NCBI GenBank assembly: GCA_020510985.1
Contig: CM035843.1
Location: forward strand, 157,059,922-157,123,921
Direction: 5' to 3'
Origin: Pholidichthys leucotaenia
Lineage: Eukaryota
DNA: 64,000 nucleotides
Every line of letters starts with the position of its first letter. Within the stretch, counting starts at the first letter, position 1. Shown piece after piece: positions 2,160-53,442 of the stretch. A program made the translations under genes and the position numbers. The notes below the pieces were generated by a model, which did no database searches, was not told the origin of the DNA, and saw nothing but the letters and a program-made list of their open reading frames with translations.

Positions 2160-4079
2160 GTGTCTATTGCTGGGAGAATGCCGTCATCCAGGGGCCATGG
2201 TCGGCGCCTGAGTAGAAAGCTAGCGGAGGTTCTGGAGTATGTGGACGGTACTCTATTCACCGCTACGCTGTACGACACTCCCAGCGACATACGCTGGCAC
2301 CTGGACTGCGCTGAGGATCTTCTGGACAATCTTCCCCTCGATTGCGACGGTCACTCGGAGGTGATTATGAGGAGGGAAGAACTCGCTACACAGTGCGAGA
2401 TACTTCGTGGGCTGGAGGAGGAAGAGAGCAGGAAGCAGAGGAGGAGCCATCCTCGCTCCCCGTGTTGGAGTCCCGTTCCCGTCCCAGAGCTGGTCCAGGA
2501 GTGCGCGCCGTCTGGGGGCCGACGACTTCGGCGCAACGGCCCAGGTCACCCTCAGCAGAATCCCCGGCTGGACCTGCTGCTGGCAAAGTCCATCAGCGAA
2601 CCGCCGAGAGCGGCCCCACCTCGTCCATCCAGGGGGCCCTCTGTCGCCATCCAGCGGGGAGAAGGAGGAACAATGTCCCCTACAGCAGGAACCATCTCTG
2701 CCCTGGGAGAAAGGCAAGTGCATGATAATTTATTACATCTTGATTATAATCTGCCTTGTCTGGCTCCTGGGGGCGGAGTTCGGGGTTCGCAGCCCTCCGA
2801 ACTTCCTCCACCTGCTGTAGAGAATGTAACTAAACCTGCTGCCTCTGTGTTCCCCCCTGTCCAGCGGTCCACAACGCCAGGCCAACGTCGTCGGATGAAG
2901 AGGGGGCCTTCAGTGCTGGAAAGCCTGGATCCGGCCCTGCAGCCACATCGTGGACTGAGGAGAAAAGCGGACCGTGACCCGGAGCCTGAGCCGATGAAGA
3001 AGCGTCCCCGGGTCTCCTTGCCGGAGCGGTCCGAGCCAGTGGGTCGAGGGTCCCCTGCCCCCACGCCATACGGGTCTTCGGCGTGGACAGCAGCGCAGGA
3101 GGAACCTCAAGCTGCAGATGCCATCCTGCCAGCTGCGGAGCCCGACGCAGCTGAGTTCGAGCCTGCTGACGAGAGTTGCCGCCCTGAACCTGGATCGTCG
3201 GAGTCCTGGGTGGCAACAGAACCCAAGTGCAGGCAAGTGCTCCCTCTGGTGTCTCTGTCCCCTGTGTTGGAGCATTTTTGCCTGCCTCTCGGGGAGGCGA
3301 GTGAGGAGCAGCCGCCTGCTGCGCCCGAGCTCGTCTCGCTGGGTTATGTTGCTACCGGTGATTCTGATCCCGGTTTTCTTGTTTCTGAGCCTTGTTGCAG
3401 TGTCGCCGGCGTGGAACGAGTCGGAGTCACTGGGTTGGAGGTCCCAGGTTCGGGGGTGGAGATCGTCAGCGGAGCTGCACCGACCCAGTCGGGGTCCGTC
3501 ATGGAGGCTGCTGTGGCCCAATCGGGGTCCGACGTGGGTGCATCAGTGGCCCAATCGGGGTCCACCGCGGGTGCGGTTCTGGCCCAATCGGGGTCCCAAT
3601 GTGGGCGTACCGGAGGCCCAATCAGGGTCCGCCGCAGGTGCGGTTCTGGCCCAATCGGGGTCCGACGTGGGTGCGTCAGAGGCCCGATCGGGGTCCACCG
3701 CGGGCGCGGATCTGGCCCAATCGGAGTCCAACGTGGGTGCACCAGAGGCTCGATTTGGGTCCACCGCGGGTGCAGTTCCGGCCCAATCGGGGCCCGACGT
3801 GGGTGCAGCTGGGACTCAATCGGGGTCCAGCGGAGGTGCAGCGCCAGCGTGGTCTGCGGACAGGGGAGGAGCTGCAGACCTTTCACCGCCGAAGGGATTA
3901 CAGGCTCATCCTGGTCATCTGTTCCCTCTGAGTCACCACCCCTGTGCTTCATCGCCGGGGGCCGTGGGGGCTCCTGTTCGCTCGCCCCGGCTCTCCCGAG
4001 TTTTGTCCTCATCAGGGAGGCCGCCGCAGGCTGTTTTTCCCCGGGACTGGTGGCTGAGGGACACAGTTCGGCCGCCTGA
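2160..4079 (+). CDS. 639-aa ORF of unknown function, Pro/Arg/Gly/Ser-rich, spanning a 33-bp minisatellite. It shows no recognisable gag or pol motif.
   Basis: Longest ORF of the internal region. It has no CCHC, DTG, YxDD or DDE motifs and many out-of-frame overlapping ORFs typical of GC-rich repeats. Confidence 0.3.
   Translation: MSIAGRMPSSRGHGRRLSRKLAEVLEYVDGTLFTATLYDTPSDIRWHLDCAEDLLDNLPLDCDGHSEVIMRREELATQCEILRGLEEEESRKQRRSHPRSPCWSPVPVPELVQECAPSGGRRLRRNGPGHPQQNPRLDLLLAKSISEPPRAAPPRPSRGPSVAIQRGEGGTMSPTAGTISALGERQVHDNLLHLDYNLPCLAPGGGVRGSQPSELPPPAVENVTKPAASVFPPVQRSTTPGQRRRMKRGPSVLESLDPALQPHRGLRRKADRDPEPEPMKKRPRVSLPERSEPVGRGSPAPTPYGSSAWTAAQEEPQAADAILPAAEPDAAEFEPADESCRPEPGSSESWVATEPKCRQVLPLVSLSPVLEHFCLPLGEASEEQPPAAPELVSLGYVATGDSDPGFLVSEPCCSVAGVERVGVTGLEVPGSGVEIVSGAAPTQSGSVMEAAVAQSGSDVGASVAQSGSTAGAVLAQSGSQCGRTGGPIRVRRRCGSGPIGVRRGCVRGPIGVHRGRGSGPIGVQRGCTRGSIWVHRGCSSGPIGARRGCSWDSIGVQRRCSASVVCGQGRSCRPFTAEGITGSSWSSVPSESPPLCFIAGGRGGSCSLAPALPSFVLIREAAAGCFSPGLVAEGHSSAA
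3490..3850. repeat. Minisatellite of about 10-11 units of ~33 bp (GGCCCAATCGGGGTCCGACGTGGGTGC...).
   Basis: Visible tandem periodicity. It translates to a GPIGVRRGC-type peptide repeat in two frames. Confidence 0.75.
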
Positions 4080-4735
4080 GGAACTGTTTCGCCGGTTTGG
4101 CGCCTTGGGTCGGCCACCTGACGTGTTATGTGTGTCTTCAGGCGACCTGGTTCGACCACCGGAGGAGCGGATGTGCTGGGCGTTGGACTCTGGTGAGCCG
4201 CCTGATCATGTTCTGCCTCTTGTGACCACCCGCCGGCTGTTGGACGTGGGGAGACCACCTGAACTGTTCCTGTGGCGCTTGGTCTCCGCCGGTCAGCATA
4301 AACTGTTGGGGGGTAGTGGTTTTTCTGGGTTAATCCGTCAGTGATTGTTCTGTCTTTTTTTTTTCTTGTCCTTGCTGTTCTGTGTATTTTGTGTTTTGGT
4401 TATGTCTTGCAGTTGCCCTAGTATGTGGTTTTGTTCTACTGTTGCCTTGTTTTTATCTCCGTGTATTTTGTCTGATTTTTGAATATTTGTTTTTTTGTCA
4501 TAGTCTTGTGTTTAATATTTCTGACCCACTAGTTCTGTTTTTTTTTTGTTTCCTCCATGTGCATTTTTTGATTTTGTCTGAGTAGTTACTCTTGTCATTG
4601 TCCTGTATGTCGTTTTTCTTGTCTCTGTTTTGTCTTTGGGTTTGGTCTCTCTCCCTCCGCTCCTACCACCGGCCACCCACCCTGGGGGGTGGGGGGTGGG
4701 GGGCAGGGTGGTCCTTGGGGCGTTCTGAGCCCGCC

Positions 4736-4752: not shown

Positions 4753-5268
4753 GTTACGACCCGAGCGCTGGGTTCTGTTTGCGCTCGGGCTAAGCTCAAC
4801 TCGCTGCCGGCCTTGATAGCTGTGGGCTGTATTCTGGCCTCACCGGGCTCTTATTGTGAAGGTGCTCGGTGGGGCTTCCGCCTGTCAAGGCTGGTCAGCT
4901 GTGTGTCATTACTGCTCGTTAGTGTTCGCCTTCATAAAGCGGGCACTAGCGACAGTAATGTTGCAGGAGTATGGTCAACATCTTGTCAGACTTTGTCAAC
5001 ATATTGTCAGATTGTCTACACTTTGTCAAACCTCGTCAAAGCATCACTAGACCTTCATGTCAGGTTCATGCTTTTCATGTCACAGTTTAGCTCGTAGTGG
5101 CTGGGGGCAGCCCTGCGAGCCCATGTATTGATTTGTGTGTGTTTTTGCCGAGAGCGGCTCACAGTCTTGTCCTGTCTCGTCTTGTATGTTAATAAACCAT
5201 CATCGCAAAACTCACTGGTGGACTCTTGGCGTCTTATGGTGATCCACGAGGATCACCGCATGACAGTA
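4753..5268 (+). repeat. 3' LTR of the non-autonomous LTR element.
   Basis: Direct repeat of 1585..2101. Confidence 0.75.
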
Positions 5269-5270
5269 AC

Positions 5271-7246
5271 AAAGTTCCATTAAGTTCAACATAGTGTTCT
5301 AATCTATCAAGTAGAATATTATGATTGATAGTATCAAAAGCTGCACTAAGGTCTAAAAGGACAAGTACAGAAACCAGTCCATTATCAGATGTGATGAGGA
5401 GGTCGTTAGTGACCTTCGCTAAGGCTGTTTCAGTACTATGATGGATTCTAAACCCAGATTGAAACTCTTCAAGTAAACCATTTCCCTGCAGGTGGTCAAA
5501 TAATTGCGTAGCAACAACTCTTTCTAAGATTTTTGAAATGAAAGGGAGATTAGAGATTGGTCTATAGTTAGCTAAAGCTCCTGGATCTAGCGTTGGCTTT
5601 TTGAGTAAGGGTTTAATTACAGCCGTTTTAAAAGCCTGCGGTACATGGCCTAAAGTTAATGAAGAATTGATTATATGAAGAATAAGGCTACCAATAAGTG
5701 GGAAGACTTCTTTAAATAACCTGGTAGGAATAGGGCCTAAAAGACAAGTTGAAGGTTTGGATGAGGAAACTATTTTGTCTAACTCACAAAGATCGATTGG
5801 AGTAAACTCATCAAGACAGACATCAGTTGAAGGAGTTGTAGTAGTTACAGTATTTAAGTTAACTGTGGGAAGAATCTGATTGATTTTATCTCTGATGGAT
5901 GAAATTTTATTATTGAAAAAGTTCATAAAGTCCTGACTAGTAAGCTCTAAGGGAATGCTAGGATTGACAGAGTCCTGACTCTTTGTCAACCTGGCTACAG
6001 TGCTGAAAAGAAACCTGGGATTATTCTTGTTCTCTTCTATTAATGCAGAATAATAACTCGTTCTAGCTTTTCTAAGAGATTTTTTATAGATTAAAAGATG
6101 ATTTCTCCAAACTAAATAGATTTCATCTAAATTAGTGGAGTGCCATTTTCTTTCTAATTGACGAGTCTTCTGTTTTAAGCTACGAGTTTCTGTGTTGAAC
6201 CAAGGAGTTAGAAATCTCTGATTAGACTTTTTCTTTTTTAAGGGGGCCACCAAGTCTAGAGTCTGATGCAGAGAAGCTGTAACACTATCCACCATGTTAT
6301 CAATTACAGAAGGAGCAAGCTGTCTATAGCTTATTTCCGTTGTGTTGACACATGGCATAGAGGAAATAATCTGCATAAATTTGGTAACAGCATCATCTGA
6401 GAGGCATCTACTGTAATAATATTTTTCTTTAGCAGCCAAATAGTCAGAAATAGTAAAATCAAAGGTTAACAGACAATGGTCTGACAGTACAGGGTTATGA
6501 GGAGACACTACAAGATTTTCTATTTCTATGCCATATGTCAGAACAAGGTCCAATGTATGGTGGAGGTAATGAGTAGAATTTCCTACTTTCTGAGAAAACC
6601 CAATCGAGTCTAATATTGAATTAAATGCCACATTAAGGCAGTCACTATCTACATCCACATGTATATTAAAGTCCCTTACTACAATTATTCTATCAGATTT
6701 CAGCACTAAATCAACTAAGAAATCAGCAAATTCGGATAAAAATTCTGAGTAGGTTGATGGGGGACGATAAACTATGGCAAATAAAATTGGGTTTAACCTA
6801 AAATTGCTAAAGTGCCCAATACTGAGGACCAGGCCCTCAAAGGAATTATAACATGTTTTTTGCTTTACATTAACTAGTAATTTGGAATGGTAAATTGTTG
6901 CTACTCCTCCTCCACGACCAGAACTTCTGGGATTTTGACAGTTTAAATAACCAGAGGGAGTTGATTCATTTAAACCAACATAATCCTCTTGCCCTAACCA
7001 AGTCTCTGTAAGGGATATTAATTCAATCTGATGATCAATTAACAGATCATGGACTAACAGAGACTTGGGAGTTAGAGACCTAATATTTAATAAACCACAT
7101 TTAATTTTTAAATTATGAGGAGGAACAGAGGCCGAATCATTCAATTTAGAGGCTTTATGTTTAATTTGAGTTTTACCAATATTTTGCTTAATCACTTTGG
7201 GATGCTTATATATTATATTTTTATTTACTTTGGAGGGAGCAGACAA
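5271..7246 (-). CDS. N-terminal part of LINE copy a ORF2: APE-type endonuclease plus RT N-terminal region.
   Basis: [17 protein letters not shown]...SLTETWL endonuclease signature; RT blocks [14 protein letters not shown]. It is colinear with 43021..45500. Confidence 0.8.
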
Positions 7247-12140: not shown

Positions 12141-12935
12141 GTGCCATTTTTGTCTTTGAATGTTTATGGACTATATAACGAAGAGCTCCCTGGTTCCATC
12201 AGTATGGATTTCCTTCTTGTTTTTGCACTGTCGTTTCTTTCTTACCGACTCTTTGTCTCGGAGGTAAGCACGATCGCAATCATGCCGGGAAGAACGCAGT
12301 ATTCCAGAAAAATGTTACTGCATTTAAACATGGAAAATGCAGCATCTGTGTTTGAGTCTGTGCCGCAACTGCCGGACTTTATTTTAAGAGATTTTCATGG
12401 ACACAGTGATGAAAAGAGAGACAAGAAGAGGAAATGCGGAAGATTAAACCTGAGGAGGCGTCAGCTTAACCACATTCCTCTTCCTTCCATTATTATGGGG
12501 AACGTACAATCCCTGAGAAATAAAGTGGATGAAATTCAAGGAAATGTACGATATCAGAAGGATTTCAAGAACTGCTGTGTCATGGCTTACACGGAGACGT
12601 GGCTTACGGCACATGACCAGGATGCAGACCTGTGGATTGACGGCTTTGGAGCCCCACTTTGCTCGGATCGGCAGGAAGAGGTAACGGGGAAATGTCAGGG
12701 GGACGGCGTATGCTTGTATATTAATAAACAGTACTGTACATCTGTCACGGTCAGAGAGCGCACCTGTACACCAGATGTGGAGCTTCTGTCCGTGTCGACT
12801 ACACCCCTTTTATCTACCTCTCAAGTTCCTCCAACTTTTTATCTGCCCCGCAAGTTCCCACAACTTTTCATAACAACTGTGTACATTCACCTGAGGGCAG
12901 ATGCTGCCTCACCTCCAGCACCGTCTTTGATGTAG
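12141..12935 (+). CDS. Family-2 LINE ORF2 N-terminal region plus APE endonuclease.
   Basis: NVQSLRNKVDEIQ ... MAYTETWL endonuclease motifs. Confidence 0.7.
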   Translation: MPFLSLNVYGLYNEELPGSISMDFLLVFALSFLSYRLFVSEVSTIAIMPGRTQYSRKMLLHLNMENAASVFESVPQLPDFILRDFHGHSDEKRDKKRKCGRLNLRRRQLNHIPLPSIIMGNVQSLRNKVDEIQGNVRYQKDFKNCCVMAYTETWLTAHDQDADLWIDGFGAPLCSDRQEEVTGKCQGDGVCLYINKQYCTSVTVRERTCTPDVELLSVSTTPLLSTSQVPPTFYLPRKFPQLFITTVYIHLRADAASPPAPSLM

Positions 12936-13352
12936 TACAGCGGTTGCAGTCGATTTCCCCAGAGGCTCCAAATTTTATCATTGGGGATTTTAACCATGTG
13001 TCTTTAATGAAGACACTTAAAAACTTTTATCAGTATGTCTCCTGCCAAACCAGGCGAAAAAAAAACATTGGACCTGTGCTACGGCTCCATAGAGAGGGCC
13101 TTTAAATCTCTTCCCCTTCCTCCTTTAGGATCCTCAGATCACAACTGTGTACATTTGCTGCCCACATATAAAACTGCTCTCAGAAGAGGCAAGGCGAAGA
13201 CCAGAGACATAAACATGTGGACAGAGGATTCAGTGCACTGCCTCCAGAAATGCTTTAACTGTATGGACTAGGAGGTGTTCACGCTCACCTGCAGAGAAGA
13301 TTTGGACTCTTTAGTGGACGTGACATGCTCATACATGGCTTTCTGAAGAGAC

Positions 13353-14429
13353 ATGATCGTTCCACGTAAACGTGTCAAAATATATCCCAACAACAAGCCA
13401 TTGGTTACAAAATCAGTTAAATCCTGCTTACAGAGGAAAGCACCTGCCTTTAAACAGGGGGTTGTTTCTGAGCTACAGGTAGCCACAAAAGAGCTGAAGG
13501 CCGAAATTTTAAGAGCAAAACAGAATTATAAATCAGAGTTGGAAAGCAAGATGGCAACGAAGAAGCTTGGTTCAGCCTGGGCCAGTATGAAAACTATTGC
13601 AGACCTTCAGAGCACAGAGCACAGTAATTGTATGTTTTTAGATGGTTTTAGTTCAGACACAGAGCTGGCTAATGCTCTTAATTGTTTTTATGGTCATTTT
13701 GATTCATTTGATTTTAGCACAGAATCCCAAGATTTGAAACAGAAACTCAAAGACAATCAGCACTTTAATATTGAGGTGCAGGATGTTAAAAGGGCATTCT
13801 GTGCTGTAAGAGTGAACAAAAGTCAGGGCCCTGATAATATATGTGGGCGCTTGGTAAAGTCCTGTGCACATGAACTGAGTCCTGTGTTTCACTATATTTT
13901 CAATAAGTCCTTACAGACACGACATGTGCCTAAGATCTGGAAAGATGCTGTGGTTGTCTCTGTTCCAAAATCCAGCTGTCCTAAAATGGTCAATGATTTT
14001 AGACCAGTTGCTTTGACCTCAATTTTAATGAAAATTTTTGAAAAACTGGTCAGATTTGAGGTCCTAGAGCAGACTGAGCATGCATTGGATCCTCTGCAGT
14101 TTGCCTATAGGCCTCACAGAGGAGTGGAGGACGCCACTGTCACTCTGTTTAACATGCTTTTTAAACATCTGGATTTTAATGGGACACACGCCAGGCTTTT
14201 ATTTGTGGACTTTTCTTCCGCTTTTAATACAGTCCAACCTCATATTTTAGTTGAAAGGCTCCTGCAACAATTTGATTTGAGTAATAATCTGGTGGGTTGG
14301 ATTCTGGATTTTTTAACCAACAGGACACAGAGAGTAAGGGTCAATGGTACATTGTCTGACCAAAAGTGTTCTTCTACTGGCTCTCCTCAGGGGTGTGTGT
14401 TGTCACCACTACTCTTCATCCTGTACATA
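13353..14429 (+). CDS. Family-2 LINE reverse transcriptase, N-terminal two thirds.
   Basis: [30 protein letters not shown] and [13 protein letters not shown] motifs. The ORF runs on into the Tc1 TIR. Confidence 0.8.
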
Positions 14430-14721
14430 CAGTGGGGTAAAAAAGTATTTAGTCAGCCACCAATTGTGCAAGTTCTCCCACTTAAAAGATGAGAGAGGTC
14501 TCCAATTTTCATCATTGGTATACCTCAACTATGAGAGACAAAATAAGAAAAAAAAATCCAGAAAATCACATTGAAGGATTTTTAATTAATTAATTGAATG
14601 GTAAATTCCTCGGTAAAATAAGTATTTGGTCAATAACAAAAGTTCATCTCAATACTTTGTTATATACCCTTTGTTGGCAATGACAGAGGTCAAACGTTTT
14701 CTGTAAGTTTTCACAAGGTTT

Positions 14722-15225
14722 TCACACACTGTTGCTAGTATTTTGGCCCATTCCTCCATGCAGATCAGTGATGTTTTGGGGCTGTCGCTGGGCAACACAG
14801 ACTTTCAACTCCCTCCAAAGATTTTCTATGGGGTTGAGATCTAGAGACTGGCTAGGCCACTCCAGGACCTTGAAATGCTTCTTACGAAGCCACTCCTTCG
14901 TTGCCTGGGCAGTGTGTTTGGGATCATTGTCATGTTGAAAGACCCAGCCACGTTTCATCTTTAATGCCCTTGCTGGTGGAAGGAGGTTTTCACTCAAAAT
15001 CTCACGATACATGGCCCCATTCATTCTTTCCTTTACACAGATCAGTCGTCCTGGTCCCTTTGCAGAAAAACAGCCCCAAAGTATGATGTTTCCACCCCCA
15101 TGCTTCACAGTAGGTATGGTGTTCTTTCTCCTCCAAACACGACAAGTTGAGTTGTTACCAAAAAGTTCTATTTTGGTTTCATCTGACCATATGACATTCT
15201 CCCAATCCTCTTCTGGATCATCCAA
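14722..15225 (-). CDS. Tc1 transposase DDE catalytic domain (C-terminal part).
   Basis: [11 protein letters not shown] ... HDNDPKHT ... [10 protein letters not shown] (D, D, E spacing). Confidence 0.85.
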
Positions 15226-15242
15226 ATGCTCTCTAGCAAACT

Positions 15243-15638
15243 TCAGACGGGCCTGGACATGTACTGGCTTAAGCAGGGGGACACGTCTGGCACTGCACGA
15301 TTTGAGTCCCTGGCGGCGTAGTGTGTTTCTGATGTAGCCTTTGTTACTTTGGTCCCAGCTCTCTGCAGGTCATTCACTAGGTCCCCCCATGTGGTTCTGG
15401 GATTTTTTCTCACCGTTCTCGAGATAATTTTGACCCCACGGGGTGAGATCTTGCGTGGAGCCCCAGATCGAGGGAGATTGTCAGTGGTCTTGTATGTCTT
15501 CCATTTTCTAATAATTGCTCCCACAGTTGATTTCTTCACACCAATCTGCTTACCTATTGCAGATTCAGTCTTCCCAGCCTGGTGCAGGTCTACAATTTTG
15601 TTTCTGGTGTCCTTTGACAGCTCTTTGGTCTTGGCCAT
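15243..15638 (-). CDS. Tc1 transposase N-terminal paired-like HTH DNA-binding domain.
   Basis: [19 protein letters not shown] ... [11 protein letters not shown]. It is separated from the DDE ORF by one stop or frameshift. Confidence 0.8.
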
Positions 15639-16008
15639 AGTGGAGTTTGGAGTCTGACTGTTTGAGGTTGTGGACAGGTGTCTTTTATACTGATAACGAG
15701 TTCAAACAGGTGCCATTAATACAGGTAACGAGTGGAGGACAGAGGAGCCTCTTAAAGAAGAAGTTACAGGTCTGTGAGAGCCAGAAATCTTGCTTGTTTG
15801 AAGGTGACCAAATACTTATTTTACTGAGGAATTTACCAATTAATTCATTAAAAATCCTTCAATGTGATTTTCTGGACTTTTTTTTCTCATTTTGTCTCTC
15901 ATAGTTGAGGTATACATATGATGAAAATTGGAGACCTCTCTCATCTTTTAAGTGGGGGAACTTGCACAATTGGTGGCAGACTAAATACTTTTTTGCCCCA
16001 CTGTAAAC

Positions 16009-18765: not shown

Positions 18766-19907
18766 ATGTCATCGCTATTTATTTATTTAGCGAATGCAAA
18801 GTCCTCAAGCCAAGCAGTTGCCGCCTGGTTTGCTGTATGGAGAGAGTGTAATCCTCCTTCCAGTCTTTGGAGCGGGCAAGCCTCTATGATGTGTTCCATT
18901 GTTTGCTCCTCTCCACATGCGCACAGTGGGCAAGGGCTACTGCCCCATCTGTGAAGGCTGGCCAAGCAGGGGCCATGTCCAGTCCTGAAGCGACTGAGTG
19001 TAGACCACTGTCTCCTTGGGAGGTTGGTGCCTGGGACCTATTGGTTGGGGTTTGTCACCAGGTATTTGTTTGGGACCTCCTTGGTCTCCCATTCCTCTTG
19101 CCAAGCTGTCTGGATGGCGAAGTCAGCTGGGGGAAGGTTTTTCCAAATCGGCTGTCTGGATGGAAGTCAGGCAGTGGGTGGGGTGTAGATATCTGCATAG
19201 ATTGGTAAGTGAGGAGAATCTTTGGCTTTTTGAAGCATCCTTTGAGTTAGTGCTGCTCGCCGGATGTGTGGGGGGGCTATGTTTGACAGTACAGGGAGCC
19301 AGGGGAGTGGTGTTGAGCGGATTGTCCCAGTTATGGTTCTCATGGTTGTGTTGAGCTGGGTGTCTACGTGGTGTGTGTAGGATGACCTGGACCAGACAGG
19401 GGCACAATATTCTGCTACAGAGTATGAAAGGGCCAGTGCTGAGGTGCGCAGGGTGGAGGCTGCCGCCCCCCATTTTGCACCAGCGAGCTTACAGAGCAGG
19501 TTGTTTCGTGCCTTCACCTTAGCAGCTGTCCCCTTTAAATGTTCCTTGAAGGATAGGGTCCTGTCAAGGGTCACTCCAAGGTAGGTTGGATTCGAGGCAT
19601 GCTTAAGCTTAAGTCCGCTCAGGTGGATGTTTAGTTCTCTGGCAGCTTTTACATTGTGGAGATGGAATACACTGGAGACGGTTTTTGCTGGGCTTGGTTT
19701 TAGGTGCCAGGTTTTGCAGAACTGGTCCAGTTTGGCAAGATCTTCCATGAGCACCCGTTCCAGTGGCTCAAAGTCTGGTGCTTGGACTGCCAAACAGATG
19801 TCATCGCTGGGGAGAGCTGACTGATTATCCGAGGAGGAGCTGTGCGCCGCTGTGTTATTCCTGCTCACAGCGGTCCGTCAAGCAGCAGCCTGTGGGACGG
19901 CTTGGTC
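18766..19907 (-). mobile_element. 5'-truncated Jockey/I-group non-LTR retrotransposon fragment (RT C-terminus, CCHC-like tail motif, (TAAA)n tail), inserted between the RNase H and integrase of G1.
   Basis: ORF 19167..19868 (YLGVTLDRTLSFKEHL ... SNIAPPHIRR). ORF 18783..18965 (CPLCACGEEQTMEHIIEACPL). A TAAATAAATAAATAGC tail lies at 18766..18785. Confidence 0.55.
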
Positions 19908-20609
19908 TCAATCCTCTGCCCGCTGGCAGTGCCGACAGTCCTCCACAGCACAGGGATGCCGAGACAGTGCGTCAGCATTGACATAGAGGCGGTCTGCCCG
20001 ATGTACGATCAGAAAATCACAATCTTGAAGTGCCTCCAGCCATCTCGCCAACTGTCCATCCGGCTCTTTAAAGTTCAGCAGCCAGGTCAGGGAAGCATGA
20101 TCCGTCATGAGCTGGAACCTCCCCCCGTTCACATACGGGCAAAAATGGCAAAGCCCCTGGATGACAGGCAACAGCTGTCTGCGAGTAACACAATAATTCC
20201 TTTCAACTCTGCTGAGAGTGCGGCTGAAAAAAGCAACTGCCTGCTCTCCGTGTTCTCCCTCCTGGGATAACACCGCCCCGATGCCCTGGTTGCTGGCGTC
20301 CGTGTCCATGATGAAAGGGTGGTTCGGGTCAGGATACTGCAAGATGGAGGCTCCGATGAGCACTGAGCGAAGCCGGGAAAAAGCAGCAGCACATCTCTCA
20401 CTCCACTGAAATGCACGGCCCTTCTGTGACAGCTGATGCAGCGGGCTGGCGATGGTGGCGAAGTCTTTCACAAATCTCCTATAATAGGAGGCCAATCCAA
20501 GAAAACTCCATAGCCCTCCCACATCCCGCGGCACTGGCCAGTTTTTCACCTTTGCCACTTTCTCTGGATTGGTGGCGACTCCCGCTGCGCTGACGATGTG
20601 GCCCAGGAA
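19908..20609 (-). CDS. G1 RT C-terminal region and RNase H.
   Basis: FLGHIVS, DTDASNQGIGAVL, TDHASLTWL and ADALSR motifs. Confidence 0.8.
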   Translation of the reverse strand, partial: FLGHIVSAAGVATNPEKVAKVKNWPVPRDVGGLWSFLGLASYYRRFVKDFATIASPLHQLSQKGRAFQWSERCAAAFSRLRSVLIGASILQYPDPNHPFIMDTDASNQGIGAVLSQEGEHGEQAVAFFSRTLSRVERNYCVTRRQLLPVIQGLCHFCPYVNGGRFQLMTDHASLTWLLNFKEPDGQLARWLEALQDCDFLIVHRADRLYVNADALSRHPCAVEDCRHCQRAED

Positions 20610-21621
20610 TAGGGATGTGATTTTTCCGCTAATTCGCGGAATTCCGCTTTTTTTGTCTTCCAAAAATTTTCAGACCAGATGGCGGCGCATGCACAACGCG
20701 AGGCTCAGCGTCTCTTCAGATTTTGTGGATTAGCAGCAATATTTCTGCTCATTTCGGGTCTGTTTGTTCAGAACAGCTTCACTTTTACATCCTACACCCG
20801 AACAAAATAACGACCTTTTTATCAGCAACCTACATTTCATCCCTGAGCTCTGGAGAACACCCGACGCTAGGTAAGCTACCCGGCCGACCGGAAGTGCTCG
20901 CAGGCGGCATAGAGACCGTAAACAAAGGAGGGGGAAGCGCGGAGGGCTAAGAGCTAAGCTAAAGCTAACACCGCACCGGCTTTCTCTACCCAGCATTTTC
21001 CTCGCTAATGTACGGTCAGTGGCGAACAGAATGGATGAGCTGTTCGGATCACCAACAATAAGAAACTTATGAACTGCAATATCATGATTTTCACCGAAAC
21101 ATGGCTACATAGTGAAGTACTTGACGGTGCTGTCGAGCTGGCCGGACGGCACACTCTCCGGGCAGACGGAGCAGCTGATGACTCCGGAAAGACGTGGGGG
21201 ACTGTGCATTTATATTAACAAGGCTTGGTGCACGAACTCTGTCACTGTTGGGAGACACTGCTCAGCTAACCTGAAGTTTCTCATGGTTAAATGTAGACCT
21301 TTCTAGCTGCCACAGGAGTTCACTTTTCACTTTTCTTCATCTTGCCTGCTGAAGATGTTTTGGACTTTATTTAAAAAATATTTTTAACGCCACACATGTG
21401 ATGGATAATGCTTGTTGGAATATTTTTTAGGAATGCTATCTTCTTGGAACATAAGTCAATATTATACAGTAATAAGTGACATTCAGCTGTCTGTTTTATG
21501 TCATTTAAGCACAGTTCTGGTACTTAAAAATCATAAAAACCCAGAAGCTTCGGGGGGCTTTGCCCCCAGACCCCCCTGCTAAATTTTCAGATAATTTCCC
21601 CAACCCCAAATCACATCCCTA
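20610..21621. mobile_element. TIR-bounded insertion with perfect 14-bp TIRs (TAGGGATGTGATTT) and a 6-bp TSD (CAGGAA). Its interior contains a 5' fragment of an L2-like LINE.
   Basis: TAGGGATGTGATTT at 20610..20623 and its reverse complement AAATCACATCCCTA at 21608..21621. CAGGAA at 20604..20609 and 21622..21627. The G1 RT frame (TTFL|GHIVS) is restored once the insert and one TSD copy are removed. Confidence 0.55.
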
Positions 21622-22588
21622 CAGGAAGGTGGTCTCCCGCCAGAATAAGTGGCATTTCTGCGGGTGTAGCCTCAGCCCGGCCTGTCAGATGGCATCCAAT
21701 ACCTCCCGGAGGTTGGACAGGGCGCCATTGAAGTCAGCTGTGTGAACCGGCAGGTCATCCAGGTAAACAATGCAGCGGCTCTGGGGCACTTGAGCCAACA
21801 CTCATTCCATCAGATGTTCAAAGGTGGCCGGGGCGTTGCAAAGTCCAAACAGCATCACCTTGAACTGATACAGTCCCTGCCCGATGGAGAAGGCTGTTTT
21901 CTGGCCGGCCTCAGGAGACAGTTCTACCTGCCAATAGCCGCTGCAGAGGTCCAGCGAGCTGAACCAGCTGGAGTCGGTGATGAAATTCAGCATGTCATTG
22001 ATGCGGGGCAGGGTAGGGATCCTTGTGGGTGACGTCATTCAGGCACCGGTAATCCACACAGAACCGCCATGAACTGTCCTTCTTCCTAACCAGAACCACC
22101 GGCACTGCCCAGGGGCTGCTGGAGGGTTCAATAACATCTGCCTTCAGCATTACCCGTATTTTTTGTTCTGCCGTCACCCTCCTTGAAAAAGGCAGACGGC
22201 GGGGGCGGAGCCGGATTGGCCTGGTCTCACCGGTGTCGATCCCATGCTGCACCAAGGTGGTTCGGGTGCACTCCTCATCCTTGGCAGCGAAGACGTCAAT
22301 GTAGCAGTCCAACAGCTCCTGCAGCTGGCGTCTCTGTCCCGATTCCAGTCCGCTGCAGCTCTGCTGGAACAATTCTTTGACCACCTGGTGTGTTTCTGCT
22401 GACACATTGACCTGCTCCGCTGTGGCCATCCCTCTTGCTGTCTCTATCAGTGATTGTGCTCCCTCTGCTCGTGCTGGTGGTGCGATTGTGTTCAGTTCTT
22501 GCGGTGACCCACCCGGTTCGGTCCATCCTGGTGACCCCTCGATCACGCAGGCCCCCGGGTTCCTCCTCTGGGTTCTACTGAAGAGCAT
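21622..22588 (-). CDS. G1 reverse transcriptase (N-terminal and central parts, with frameshifts).
   Basis: WRFCVDYRCLNDVT, LDLCSGYWQV, FGLCNAPATF and YLDD motifs. Confidence 0.8.
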
Positions 22589-22824
22589 GATGGTCCGAGC
22601 CCCCAGCAGGAGGGACGACCTGGTGGTGGCAATTTTTGTGCCCTATGCTGTGAGCAGATCGAGTCCAATAATGCAGGGGTCTTTAATGTCAGCCAGCCAG
22701 AACGGGTGGTTTGTGTCTGGCCGGCCACCCCCACCACAAGAACTCTCCGCCCACCCAGTCTGGCACATTCACCGGTGGCTGTGGTGACACTATGCCCCGT
22801 GGGTTCCCACCCCTGTGGTTCTGC

Positions 22825-33895: not shown

Positions 33896-35670
33896 TCAGA
33901 ATCAGAATCAGAATCAGGTTTATTGCCATTGTTCATGTAGTACACAAACTAGGAATTTGTCTCGGTACAATGCTGCAACATTAAACATGATAAGATAAGA
34001 GAAATAAACTATACATGTAATAAAGTGTAGGATAAGATTAAATGATACTGGTCAACAGTTAAAATATATATTAGCCAGCAGCAGATACTGTGGAGAACTA
34101 TATAGTGCAGTCGGTAATGCAGGAAGAAAACAGTGATGATTGACATGAGTCTGGTTGAGCTGCTGTACATGGTGCACGAGAGTCACTTAGTGTTCAGCAG
34201 TCTAATGGCAGAGGGGAAGAAGCTGTTCATGTGACGGGAGGTTTTAGTCTGGATGGACCGAAGTCTTCTACCAGAGGGGAGGGGGGCAAACAGTACATGA
34301 CCAGGGTGTGAGGGATCGGCTATGATCCGGCCAGCACGCCTCCGGGTCCTGGAGATGTACAGATCCTGGAGAGATGGGAGCTTGCAGCCGATCACCTTCT
34401 CAGCAGTGCGCACGACGCGCTGCAGCCTTAGTCTGTCCCTGGCAGTGGCTCCTGCGTACCACACGGTTATGGAGGTGGTGAGGATGGACTCGATGATGGC
34501 TGTGTAGAACTGCACTAACATCTTGGTGGGTAGCTTGAGCTTCCTCAGCTGCCGCAGGAAGAACATCCTCTGCTGGGCTTTTTTGATGAGTGAGCTGATG
34601 GTCAGCTCCCATTTGAGGTCCCTGGTGATGGTAGTGCCTAGGAAGCGGAAGGAATCAGCAGTGGTGATGGGAGAGCCTGAGAGGGTGAGGGGGGGCAGAG
34701 GAGTAGTGACTTTCCTGAAGTCTACAATCATCTCCACTGTCTTCAGAGCGTTCAGCTGCAGGTTGTTATTGCTGCACCAGGACGCCAGCTGGGCCACCTC
34801 TCTCCTGTAGGCGGACTCGTCGCCGTTGGAGATGAGCCCGATGAGGGTGGTGTCGTCCGCAAACTTGATCAACTTGACAGACTGGTGGCTGGAGGTGCAG
34901 GAGTTGGTGTAAAGGGAGAAGAGTAGGGGGGAAAGTACACAGCCCTGGGGTGATCCGGTGCTGATGCTAGTATAGTCTGAGACAGTCTTTCCCAGCCGCA
35001 CATGCTGCCTCCGGTCCGTCAGGAAGTCGATGATCCACCTGCAGAGGGAGTCAGGCACGTTGAGCAGGGACAGCTTGTCCCGGAGCAGAGCGGGGCGGAT
35101 GGTGTTGAATGCGGAGCTGAAGTCCACAAACAGGATCCTGGCGTAGGTTCCCGGGGAGTCCAGGTGCTGCAGGATGGAGTGGAGGGCCAGGTTGACTGCA
35201 TCGTCTACAGACCTGTTGGCTCGGTAGGCAAACTGCAGCGGGTCCAGGAGAGGGGTGGTGATGGACTTGAGGTGGGACAGGACCAGGCGCTCAAAGGACT
35301 TCATGACTACAGAGGTGAGCGCTACAGGTCTGTAGTCATTAAGTCCAGTGATCCGTGGCTTCTTGGGGACAGGGATGATGGTGGAGGATTTGAGGCAGGA
35401 CGGCACGTGGCATAACTTAAGGGAGGTGTTAAAAATGTCTGTGAATACAGGAGCCAGCTGTTTCGCACAGAGTCTCAGGGTGGAGGGAGACACGCCGTCT
35501 GGGCCGGGGGCCTTGCGCGGGTTCAGTCTGGAGAACTGTTTGAGCACATCCTGCTCACTGATGATAAGGGGAGGGGGGGAGGTGGGGGGGGGGGTGCCTT
35601 AAATGAAGTAGGGAATGTGGAGGCTGTGGAGCTGGAGGGAGGGGGAGGGGGACATGAATGACATCCACAA
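33896..35670 (-). mobile_element. L2-like LINE (family 3), 5'-truncated, with a (GATTCT)n tail and TSD CATGAA, nested in the LTR of X.
   Basis: CATGAA at 33890..33895 and 35671..35676. The uninterrupted LTR sequence is seen at 37180..37215. Confidence 0.8.
34183..35547 (-). CDS. Family-3 LINE reverse transcriptase (454 aa).
   Basis: [34 protein letters not shown] and the C-terminal PSAIRLLN. Confidence 0.85.
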
Positions 35671-44792: not shown

Positions 44793-46541
44793 TTGACAAA
44801 GAGTCAGGACTCTGTCAATCCTAGCATTCCCTTAGAGCTTACTAGTCAGGACTTTATGAACTTTTTCAATAATAAAATTTCATCCATCAGAGATAAAATC
44901 AATCAGATTCTTCCCACAGTTAACTTAAATACTGTAACTACTACAACTCCTTCTATTGATGTCTGTCTTGATGAGTTTACTCCAATCGACCTTTGTGAGT
45001 TAGACAAAATAGTTTCCTCATCCAAGCCTTCAACTTGTCTTTTAGACCCTATTCCTACCAGGTTATTTAAAGAAGTCTTCCCACTTATTGGTAGCCTTAT
45101 TCTTCATATAATCAATTCTTCATTAACTTTAGGCCATGTACCGCAGGCTTTTAAAACGGCTGTAATTAAACCCTTACTCAAAAAGCCAACGCTAGATCCA
45201 GGAGCTTTAGCTAACTATAGACCAATCTCTAATCTCCCTTTCATTTCAAAAATCTTAGAAAGAGTTGTTGCTACGCAATTATTTGACCACCTGCAGGGAA
45301 ATGGTTTACTTGAAGAGTTTCAATCTGGGTTTAGAATCCATCATAGTACTGAAACAACCTTAGCGAAGGTCACTAACGACCTCCTCATTGCATCTGATAA
45401 TGGACTGGTTTCTGTACTTGTCCTTTTAGACCTTAGCGCAGCTTTTGATACTATCGATCATAATATTCTACTTGATAGATTAGAACACTATGTTGGACTT
45501 AATAGAACTTCGTTGCAGTGGTTTAGATCTTATTTATCTGATAGGTTCCAGTTTGTTCATGTAAATAATGAGTTTTCTTTCAACTCAAAGCTTAGTCATG
45601 GAGTTCCACAGGGATCTGTGCTAGGCCCTACTCTTTTTAGTTTATATATGCTTCCGTTAGGCAACATTATTAGAAAGCACTGTATACATTTTCATTGTTA
45701 TGCTGATGACACACAATTATACCTGTCAATGAAGCCAGATGATAGTAATCAATTAGCCAAGTTAGAAGCCTGTCTTAAGGAAATCAAAGCTTGGATGACT
45801 TGTAATTTCCTGCTATTAAATTCAGATAAGACTGAAGTCATTCTTGTTGGTCCAAAAAACCTTAGAAATTCCTTTCCAAATCAAACTTTCAGTTTGGATG
45901 CGGTTACTCTTTCTCTTAATAGCTCTGTGAGGAACCTTGGAGTTATTTTTGATCAGGATTTGTCCTTCAATTCACATATTAAATTTGTTTCTAAGACTGC
46001 CTTCTATCATTTGCGTAATATTGCCAAGATGAGGAGCATCTTGTCTCAGAGTGATGCTGAGAAACTGATCCACGCTTTTGTTAGCTCGAGATTAGATTAT
46101 TGTAATTCTTTATTATCAGGTTGTCCTAAAACATCTTTAAAAAGTCTTCAGCTGATCCAAAATGCTGCAGCAAGAGTTTTAACAGGTACTAGAAAGAGAG
46201 ATCATATCTCTCCGGTTCTGGCCTCCCTTCATTGGCTTCCCATAGAGTTTAGAATTAAGTTTAAAATCCTTCTTCTTACTTACAAAGCTCTAAACAATCA
46301 GGCTCCTTTTTATTTAAAACATCTGATACTACCGTATTATCCTAACAGAGCACTACACTCCCAAAATGCAGGATTACTTGTAATACCTAGAATCTCCAAA
46401 AGTACAATGGGAGGCAGAGCCTTCTGTTATCAAGCTCCTCTCCTGTGGAATCAGCTGCCAATCTGGATTCGGGAGTCAGACTCGATCTCTGTTTTTAAGA
46501 ATAGGGCTAAAACCTACCTTTTTGATATAGCCTACAATTAG
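44793..46541 (+). CDS. LINE copy b ORF2 reverse transcriptase (582 aa, apparently intact).
   Basis: All RT blocks are present: [40 protein letters not shown] and YADDTQLY. Confidence 0.85.

Positions 46542-53391: not shown

Positions 53392-53442
<51 letters not shown>

Follow-up and report, generated by a model that had tools for sequence, protein, structure and literature searches.

A 1012-bp non-autonomous DNA transposon holding the 5' part of a LINE, inserted in a Gypsy element of the teleost Pholidichthys leucotaenia

The 1012-bp insert described here is a real and cleanly bounded insertion of a non-autonomous cut-and-paste DNA transposon, in a transposon-dense region of a teleost genome. 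It lies in a window of 64,000 nt (the whole stretch of Pholidichthys leucotaenia DNA that was analysed, whose numbering is used throughout), where it interrupts the reverse transcriptase (RT) gene of a Gypsy element and carries in its interior the 5' part of a LINE (Table 1). That this is a cut-and-paste insertion is shown by its terminal inverted repeats (TIRs), by the target site duplication (TSD) that flanks it, and by the exact restoration of the host reading frame when it is removed. The locus as a whole is an ordinary nested-repeat structure of a known kind. To account for it, we favor an explanation in which a hAT6-type element transposed into the Gypsy element, and in which the LINE was retrotransposed into a short TIR element that already existed; taken in all its parts, this explanation has in our view an even chance of being correct.

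The two TIRs, as reported by a repeat finder, are perfect (14/14 complementary), with no complementarity beyond 14 bp, and CAGGAA lies on both sides of the insert. Read along the plus strand, the left junction is ...GATGTGGCC CAGGAA, followed by TAGGGATGTGATTT TTCCGC, and the right one is CCCC AAATCACATCCCTA, followed by CAGGAA GGTGG... The inverted repeats, the duplication and the TAGGG terminus at 20610 had already been proposed in a sequence-only reading of this DNA, and the coordinates and the complementarity were verified in the present analysis. When perfect 14-bp inverted pairs no more than 3 kb apart and flanked by a 6-bp direct repeat were considered over the window, this element was the sole genuine case; the two further matches to the pattern fell in a (TA)n tract and inside a long inverted repeat of Tc1. 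The same structure was present in 0 of 30 composition-matched shuffles, and a chance origin of the combined TIRs and TSD is excluded. The 40 bp that make up the TIRs and TSDs contain no substitution, which according to our own calculation leaves room for a divergence below about 7% after the insertion.

Two other ways of delimiting the insert were rejected. With a Tc1/mariner parse (GGGATG...CATCCC between TA dinucleotides) the empty site, ...CCCAGGAAGGTGG..., has no TA, 8 bases are left over and the RT frame is broken. For an 8-bp TSD the flanks would have to be direct repeats, which CAGGAATA and TACAGGAA are not, and the reconstructed empty site excludes this reading as well.

The integrity of the insertion site could be evaluated through the protein encoded by the interrupted Gypsy element. 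The right flank, translated from the minus strand, closes with ...PQKCHLFWRETTFL, and the left flank, translated likewise, opens with FLGHIVSAAGVATNPEKV (FLGHIVSAAGV), so that the two CAGGAA copies correspond to the two FL dipeptides at the flank ends. After removal of the 1012-bp insert and of one CAGGAA (1012 + 6 bp), the joined protein reads ...KCHLFWRETTFLGHIVSAAGV..., and the Pfam domain RVT_1 covers its residues 46-174, across the junction at residues 170/171, with the RT_RNaseH domains downstream. Eight fish Gypsy homologues from the database and two other Gypsy copies of the window align over the junction without gaps; the best of the homologues, which is 72% identical, is P0019 of Scortum barcoo, another teleost, and it reads KCHLFRRETSFLGHVVSAAGV at this point. 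Since the frame is restored and the relatives are gap-free, the TSD measures exactly 6 bp, and the 14-mers do not belong to the Gypsy sequence. The earlier statement that the insert splits the Gypsy RT frame exactly is thereby borne out. The same reading had considered whether the inverted 14-mers might belong to the Gypsy family consensus, and the ten relatives, all of them without the insertion, rule this out. It should be noted that this empty-site comparison was made with protein-level homologues, and that no paralogous empty site was found at the DNA level within the window. The host RT had already decayed, as it has two in-frame stops in the 93 codons that precede the insertion. No LTRs of the host Gypsy element were found within 16-27 kb.

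These data also bear on the view that there is no transposon here and that the 14-mers and CAGGAA are chance or Gypsy family sequence. A single copy of the element is known, as this view would expect; against it stand the shuffles, the ten uninterrupted relatives with the exact closure of the frame, and the unrelated LINE sequence that the insert holds on the opposite strand. We regard its probability as negligible.

Table 1. Features of the insert and of its host Gypsy element (window coordinates)
Feature	Position	Strand	Evidence or remark
Host Gypsy pol, downstream half (RT end from FLGHIVS, then RNase H domain)	19908-20609	-	RT_RNaseH_2 and RT_RNaseH, E = 1e-29 to 1e-30 (Pfam)
TSD, left copy, CAGGAA	20604-20609	.	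Identical to 21622-21627; translated from the minus strand, gives the F-L of FLGH, a motif of the host RT
5' TIR, TAGGGATGTGATTT	20610-20623	+	14/14 against the 3' arm; terminus TAGGG
5' subterminal non-LINE sequence	20624-20672	+	No homology to L007/L008
11-bp direct repeat, copy 1, AAATTTTCAGA	20664-20674	+	Adjoins the LINE 5' start, with a 2-nt overlap
Putative L2-type LINE, 5' fragment (653 bp)	20673-21325	+	blastn against L007/L008; protein homologues P0001-P0018
LINE 5' UTR-like part	20673-20874	+	Sub-part of the LINE fragment
Degenerate LINE ORF N-terminus with endonuclease (EN) start	20875-21324	+	Ends at about EN residue 110
Tandem TTCACTT, 2.4 units	21319-21335	+	TRF; sits exactly on the LINE 3' breakpoint
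Orphan AT-rich segment (255 bp)	21326-21580	+	No match in the window, LINE 3' ends or proteins
11-bp direct repeat, copy 2, AAATTTTCAGA	21581-21591	+	30 bp from the 3' end of the element
3' subterminal sequence TAATTTCCCCAACCCC	21592-21607	+	Sequence
3' TIR, AAATCACATCCCTA on the plus strand	21608-21621	-	Exact reverse complement of TAGGGATGTGATTT
TSD, right copy, CAGGAA	21622-21627	.	Identical to 20604-20609
Host Gypsy RT, upstream part ending ...KCHLFWRETTFL	21622-22000	-	RVT_1, E = 3.8e-23 across the junction (Pfam); two in-frame stops

From one end to the other, the insert consists of a 14-bp TIR, 49 bp of subterminal sequence, 653 bp of LINE, the 255-bp orphan segment, 27 bp of subterminal sequence and the second 14-bp TIR. 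The LINE piece was recognized by comparison with L007 and L008, contigs of assembly GCA_977065575.1 that carry related LINEs whose downstream ORFs have RVT_1. In blastn, 20673-21325 matched L007 5560-6238 with 76% identity, and the shorter stretch 20876-21325 matched L008 6074-6528 with 81% identity. The local alignment begins exactly at window position 20673 and L007 position 5560 (GACCAGATGGCGGCG.. and GACCAAGATGGCGGCG.., respectively), and the sequences upstream are unrelated; that two independent copies share their first base is as expected of the native 5' end of the LINE family. When 20980-21324 was translated with its frameshifts corrected, 18 protein matches were obtained (E = 1e-37 to 8e-5), which are fragments of fish LINE ORF2. 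One of these homologues, P0002, carries PF03372 (Exo_endo_phos), and another, P0001, also matches a basic region that precedes the endonuclease (RP.GSARRR.RD.KQRRGK..GLRAKL.LTPHRLSLPSIFLANVRS). The peptides IFLANVRSVANRMDEL and IFTETWL could be located at 20995-21042 and 21087-21107, and their homologues score E = 1e-37 to 1e-20. The coding remnant bears three lesions, namely a 4-bp and a 5-bp deletion, both of them frameshifting, and an in-frame stop (TAT>TAG).

The fragment thus has an APE-type endonuclease N-terminus that is continuous with a LINE 5' UTR; the RT domain, the 3' UTR and the short-tandem-repeat tail of a LINE are absent, and the homology stops at 21325, close to residue 110 of the endonuclease. 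At the breakpoint (21325/21326) the LINE copies go on ...GAGTTCACTTCCACC (...GGAGTTCACTTCCACCATT), and the element has ...GAGTTCACTTTTCACTTTTC (...GGAGTTCACTTTTCACTTTTCTTC). These results agree with the earlier description of a 3'-truncated LINE piece, composed of a 5' UTR-like region and a degenerate endonuclease N-terminus, and the AT-rich sequence said to follow it is present as well (30% G+C over 21326-21540). The resemblance of motifs and the repeat tail of the relatives point to a LINE of the L2 type. The only other LINE endonuclease N-terminus of the window, at 12474-12857, is just 34% identical and therefore represents a different family.

The non-LINE ends of the insert comprise 63 bp on the 5' side and 41 bp on the 3' side. 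The first of them (20610-20672, 36.5% G+C) contains the hexamer TTCCGC/GCGGAA three times in 20625-20647, followed by a T-rich tract. The related LINEs in L007 and L008 end in ...AATAAAGTTGAATCTAATCTAA with AATCT repeats, and this repeat is absent from the element and from the whole window. Sensitive blastn of the orphan segment against the LINE 3' ends of L007, L008 and L009, and against all other parts of the window, gave only noise. The last 100 nt of the segment fold into two hairpins, with a fold z-score of -3.1 relative to shuffled sequences. The six-frame ORFs of the non-LINE 3' part had no match at E <= 10 among 5.8 billion proteins, and Rfam reported nothing over 20550-21680. In a six-frame translation of the complete insert there was no long ORF and no transposase, and only LINE-like remnants were observed.

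Another aspect to consider is the direct repeat of 11 bp, AAATTTTCAGA, present at both ends of the block formed by the LINE 5' piece and the orphan segment. The two copies bracket 906 bp (20675-21580), and what remains outside is a miniature TIR element of about 95 bp, made up of 20610-20674 and 21592-21621. An 11-nt match between a 23-nt junction window and the 3' part occurred with a frequency of 0.009 in 20,000 dinucleotide shuffles; as the repeat was spotted post hoc, this value (p ~0.01) is only suggestive. With this reserve, the repeat suggests that the LINE piece was retrotransposed into the miniature element. Such a footprint would fit target-primed reverse transcription, with ordinary microhomology to account for the 2 nt that overlap at the 5' junction. 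The 906-bp insert has no internal TIRs, and a Mutator-like interpretation of it was accordingly discarded. It should also be mentioned that the 906-bp unit lacks the AATCT tail and the 3' UTR, so that taking the 11-bp repeat as a TSD requires a LINE 3' variant that has not been seen, or sequence inserted together with the LINE.

The sequence of events that we propose would be as follows. A DDE-type transposase, supplied in trans, would have recognised the 14-bp TIRs, and integration would have proceeded through a 6-bp staggered cut at CAGGAA, in the RT gene of a Gypsy element that was already decaying. The RNA of an L2-type LINE with a full-length 5' end would have been reverse-transcribed into a short TIR element that existed beforehand. 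We place the LINE in a pre-existing TIR element because the piece begins with the native 5' terminus of the LINE and, together with the orphan segment, lies between the two copies of AAATTTTCAGA. Most of the LINE would then have been lost by internal deletion, whether before or after insertion, and the LINE may have entered before the jump into the Gypsy element, in which case the composite moved, or afterwards, in place.

A different history is conceivable, in which a larger autonomous element gave rise to the present one by deletion or gap repair; it corresponds to the alternative, raised in the initial reading, of LINE sequence that was captured and later moved. The 63-bp and 296-bp ends would then be native, the LINE would be either a nested remnant cut by the deletion or filler acquired by template switching after excision, and the whole 1012 bp would have moved into the Gypsy element later. 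Non-autonomous hAT elements usually arise in this manner, through abortive gap repair as in Ac/Ds. The tandem TTCACTT on the LINE 3' breakpoint, with its 7-bp unit, looks like a scar of the slippage or microhomology type, the 255-bp segment is unlike a LINE 3' end, and the LINE piece has three lesions, against none in the TIRs and TSD. In its general features the element resembles Ds-like or MITE derivatives with foreign DNA, and transposons nested in other transposons, which have an interior unrelated to the transposase and derived in part from another transposon, and such slippage-like scars. In contrast to ordinary filler, the foreign DNA begins where a LINE naturally begins and lies between two copies of an 11-bp direct repeat, which is more like the footprint of a retrotransposition. 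A deletion or gap-repair history leaves this repeat beside the LINE 5' end to chance (p ~0.01), and random capture rarely begins at a LINE 5' terminus, although a nested full-length LINE that was cut later would begin there. We consider this history a real possibility that falls short of being probable. Regarding the LINE piece in particular, a nested insertion and a deletion or gap repair are roughly equally likely, and for the 11-bp repeat around the 906 bp, nested retrotransposition is a simpler explanation than capture followed by movement. The suggestion, made from the sequence at the outset, that the DNA element arose within a LINE was not supported. The LINE homology leaves 63 bp free at the 5' end of the element and 296 bp at its 3' end, TIRs included, and because it reaches neither TIR, that origin is disfavored under the nested reading and under the deletion or gap-repair reading alike.

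A more speculative version of the nested insertion would take the 906-bp unit, flanked by AAATTTTCA(GA), as a member of an undescribed family of internally deleted L2-derived retroposons with a non-canonical 3' end, which landed in a 95-bp miniature element of hAT6 or IS3EU type, the composite being mobilised afterwards by a DNA transposase. Under the nested reading, the unit shares with the short, internally deleted LINEs of the SIDE type a LINE 5' end (UTR and ORF start), a structured 3' end and a duplication of 9-11 bp. Unlike them, its 3' 255 bp show no similarity to the 3' UTR or AATCT tail of the related LINEs, and no other copy was found. We think it improbable that this version is correct; if it were, the retroposon in its miniature element would represent a cut-and-paste vehicle spreading the internal promoter of a LINE.

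With respect to the superfamily, hAT6 appears the most likely one, judging from the TAGGG end, the short TIR and the 6-bp TSD. The hAT terminal motif is reportedly (C/T)A(A/G)NG, as given by Rubin and colleagues in 2001, and TAGGG agrees with it. The ends of maize Ac, which we take to be CAGGGATGAAA and TAGGGATGAAA, share TAGGGATG with this TIR, whose first 8 nt are those of TAGGGATGAAA. The length of 14 bp is also within the 5-27 bp described for hAT TIRs (PMC3517528). In the initial reading, the 6-bp TSD was seen as conflicting with hAT, where it is 8 bp, and the superfamily was therefore called unclear. This objection falls away: hAT families whose TSDs measure 5 bp and 6 bp have group names of their own, hAT5 and hAT6 respectively (Kapitonov & Jurka 2007, as quoted by PMC12730594), and our element has the 6 bp of hAT6 instead of the canonical 8 bp. 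Non-autonomous hAT6 members are similar in their 6-bp TSD, short TIRs and TAGGG end, and in lacking an ORF of their own, as occurs in Ds-type derivatives. The difference is that no hAT transposase is linked to these ends, and that an element known from one copy is being likened to the group by TSD length and by general hAT terminal features. Because neither a transposase nor a second copy was found, the superfamily is unproven, and membership in hAT is judged from the termini and the TSD length only.

The main competitor is IS3EU/GingerRoot, whose integrase-like DDE transposase would have inserted the element by the same mechanism. These elements have 6-bp TSDs and always TA..TA termini (PMC10045372; PMC6839031), as found here (TAGGG...CCCTA), and the ends of fungal IS3EU elements, TAYGG..CCRTA (PMC12730594), are close to those of our element. 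Moreover, matches to the DDE region of the GingerRoot transposase are present in 29 species of ray-finned fish, and in the clubmoss GingerRoot elements often contain foreign gene fragments and lie in Gypsy-rich regions (PMC6839031), a situation comparable to the foreign fragment and the Gypsy neighborhood observed in our case. However, IS3EU/GingerRoot TIRs are described as longer than 30 bp and up to 100-150 bp (PMC12730594; PMC6839031), whereas the complementarity here is only 14 bp, and the third position of the terminus is G and not Y. We therefore regard an IS3EU/GingerRoot element as unlikely, if well worth keeping in mind. The TSD length would likewise suit a non-autonomous member of Dada, which is documented in many Actinopterygii with TSDs of 6-7 bp and targets multicopy small RNA genes (tRNA, U1, U6) (PMC8869645). 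One medaka Dada copy lies inside a hAT element with a 6-bp TSD (PMC8869645), so off-target Dada insertions do occur. Against this assignment, our site is a codon pair of a Gypsy RT and not a small RNA gene, and ARAGORN found no tRNA in 19500-22700, that is, up to 1 kb on either side; Dada was set apart by its target preference, and we consider it very improbable. Ranked by termini and TSD together, hAT6 stands at an even chance or slightly above it, IS3EU would be a minority candidate, and Dada or some other group would be a distant one.

The search for further copies gave no positive results. Within the window, the TIR did not recur with up to 2 or up to 4 mismatches, no second TIR pair appeared even at up to 4 mismatches, and blastn of the whole element recovered only itself. 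Exact-pattern scans of the termini, in which the chance matches were of 24-mers, gave no match in viral contigs, six loci in metagenome contigs (none of them with a partner TIR, and each due either to chance or to the same unrelated locus) and one chance match in prokaryotic genomes, in a Poribacteria MAG. An exact look-up of the ORFs of the element and of the large ORFs of the window revealed no sibling copies on record, and a full-text literature search for the TIR sequence returned unrelated primers only. It should be noted that the nearest database relatives are just 72% identical for the Gypsy protein and 76-85% identical for the LINE, and the absence of copies is therefore uninformative on the copy number in the genome.

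Beyond annotation, the importance of this locus is small, since it adds one clean TIR element with a 6-bp TSD, of hAT6 or IS3EU type, in a teleost. Nesting and deletion are sufficient to explain the 3'-truncated LINE piece, and no exotic origin is required. For annotation, TSD length is no ground for excluding such termini from hAT, and IS3EU and Dada are also candidates when 6-bp TSDs are found in fish. If the family turned out to be abundant and all its copies contained the LINE 5' UTR, it would provide a modest example of a LINE promoter being spread by a DNA transposon.

Within the 1012-bp non-autonomous TIR DNA transposon that lies inside a decayed Gypsy RT (hereafter the element), two kinds of repeats were observed at the internal junctions (see table). 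The direct repeat AAATTTTCAGA may be a target duplication produced by nested retrotransposition; in 20,000 dinucleotide shuffles of the 3' part, an 11-nt match to the 23-nt junction window arose in a share of about 0.009 (p). The tandem duplication at the point where the LINE homology ends looks like a scar of slippage or microhomology.

Features of the element, of the other LINEs of the window and of the related LINE family
Feature	Coordinates	Strand	Remarks
11-bp direct repeat of the element	20664-20674 and 21581-21591		Brackets the LINE piece and the AT-rich orphan segment
Tandem duplication TTCACTT-TTCACTT-TTC	21319-21335		Exactly where LINE homology stops in the element
Second L2/CR1-type LINE	12141-14492	+	Endonuclease N-terminus and RT ORF; unrelated to the LINE piece of the element
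LINE family with EN plus RT, copy 1	5234-7246	-	Opposite orientation to copy 2, ~38 kb between
LINE family with EN plus RT, copy 2	44793-46541	+
L2-type LINE RT, 5'-truncated	34183-35547	-	With Pfam ALKBH8_N tail
AATCT tandem repeats (LINE family terminus)	L007 9470-9503; L008 9285-9300		Contigs of GCA_977065575.1

The endonuclease N-terminus of the second L2/CR1-type LINE (12474-12857) is intact-looking and presents 34% identity to the fragment in the element. The RT ORF of this LINE (13353-14492) ends at the site of a Tc1-like DNA transposon (14430-16003), by which it was probably interrupted. This transposon, with TA at either flank, has the termini CAGTGGGGTAAAAAAGTATTTAGTCAGCC... and ...CCCACTG, inverted repeats of ~170 bp that are 95% identical and, inside, remnants of a Tc1-type transposase ORF.

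The region 2160-4344 presented 63% G+C and long ORFs overlapping in several frames, and its Pfam search gave no matches. Since its translations reiterate a motif of ~9-10 residues (GPIGV.RGC.. / AQSGS..GA), the sequence suggests a minisatellite-like tandem array. In the scan of the whole window for inverted repeats with flanking direct repeats, the matches at 53397-53436 were spurious, produced by a (TA)n microsatellite.

As regards the remaining LINEs, the translated stretches of the two copies of the EN plus RT family are near-identical. In the LINE family of L007 and L008, which is related to the LINE piece of the element, the AATCT repeats are preceded by ...TGCAATGA(C/A)AATAAAGTTG, and L008 carries between the EN and RT regions ~800 bp that L007 lacks. 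The 5'-truncated RT of the window shares 65-69% nucleotide identity with the LINE of these contigs, so a distant relationship to the family represented by the 5' end within the element is possible.
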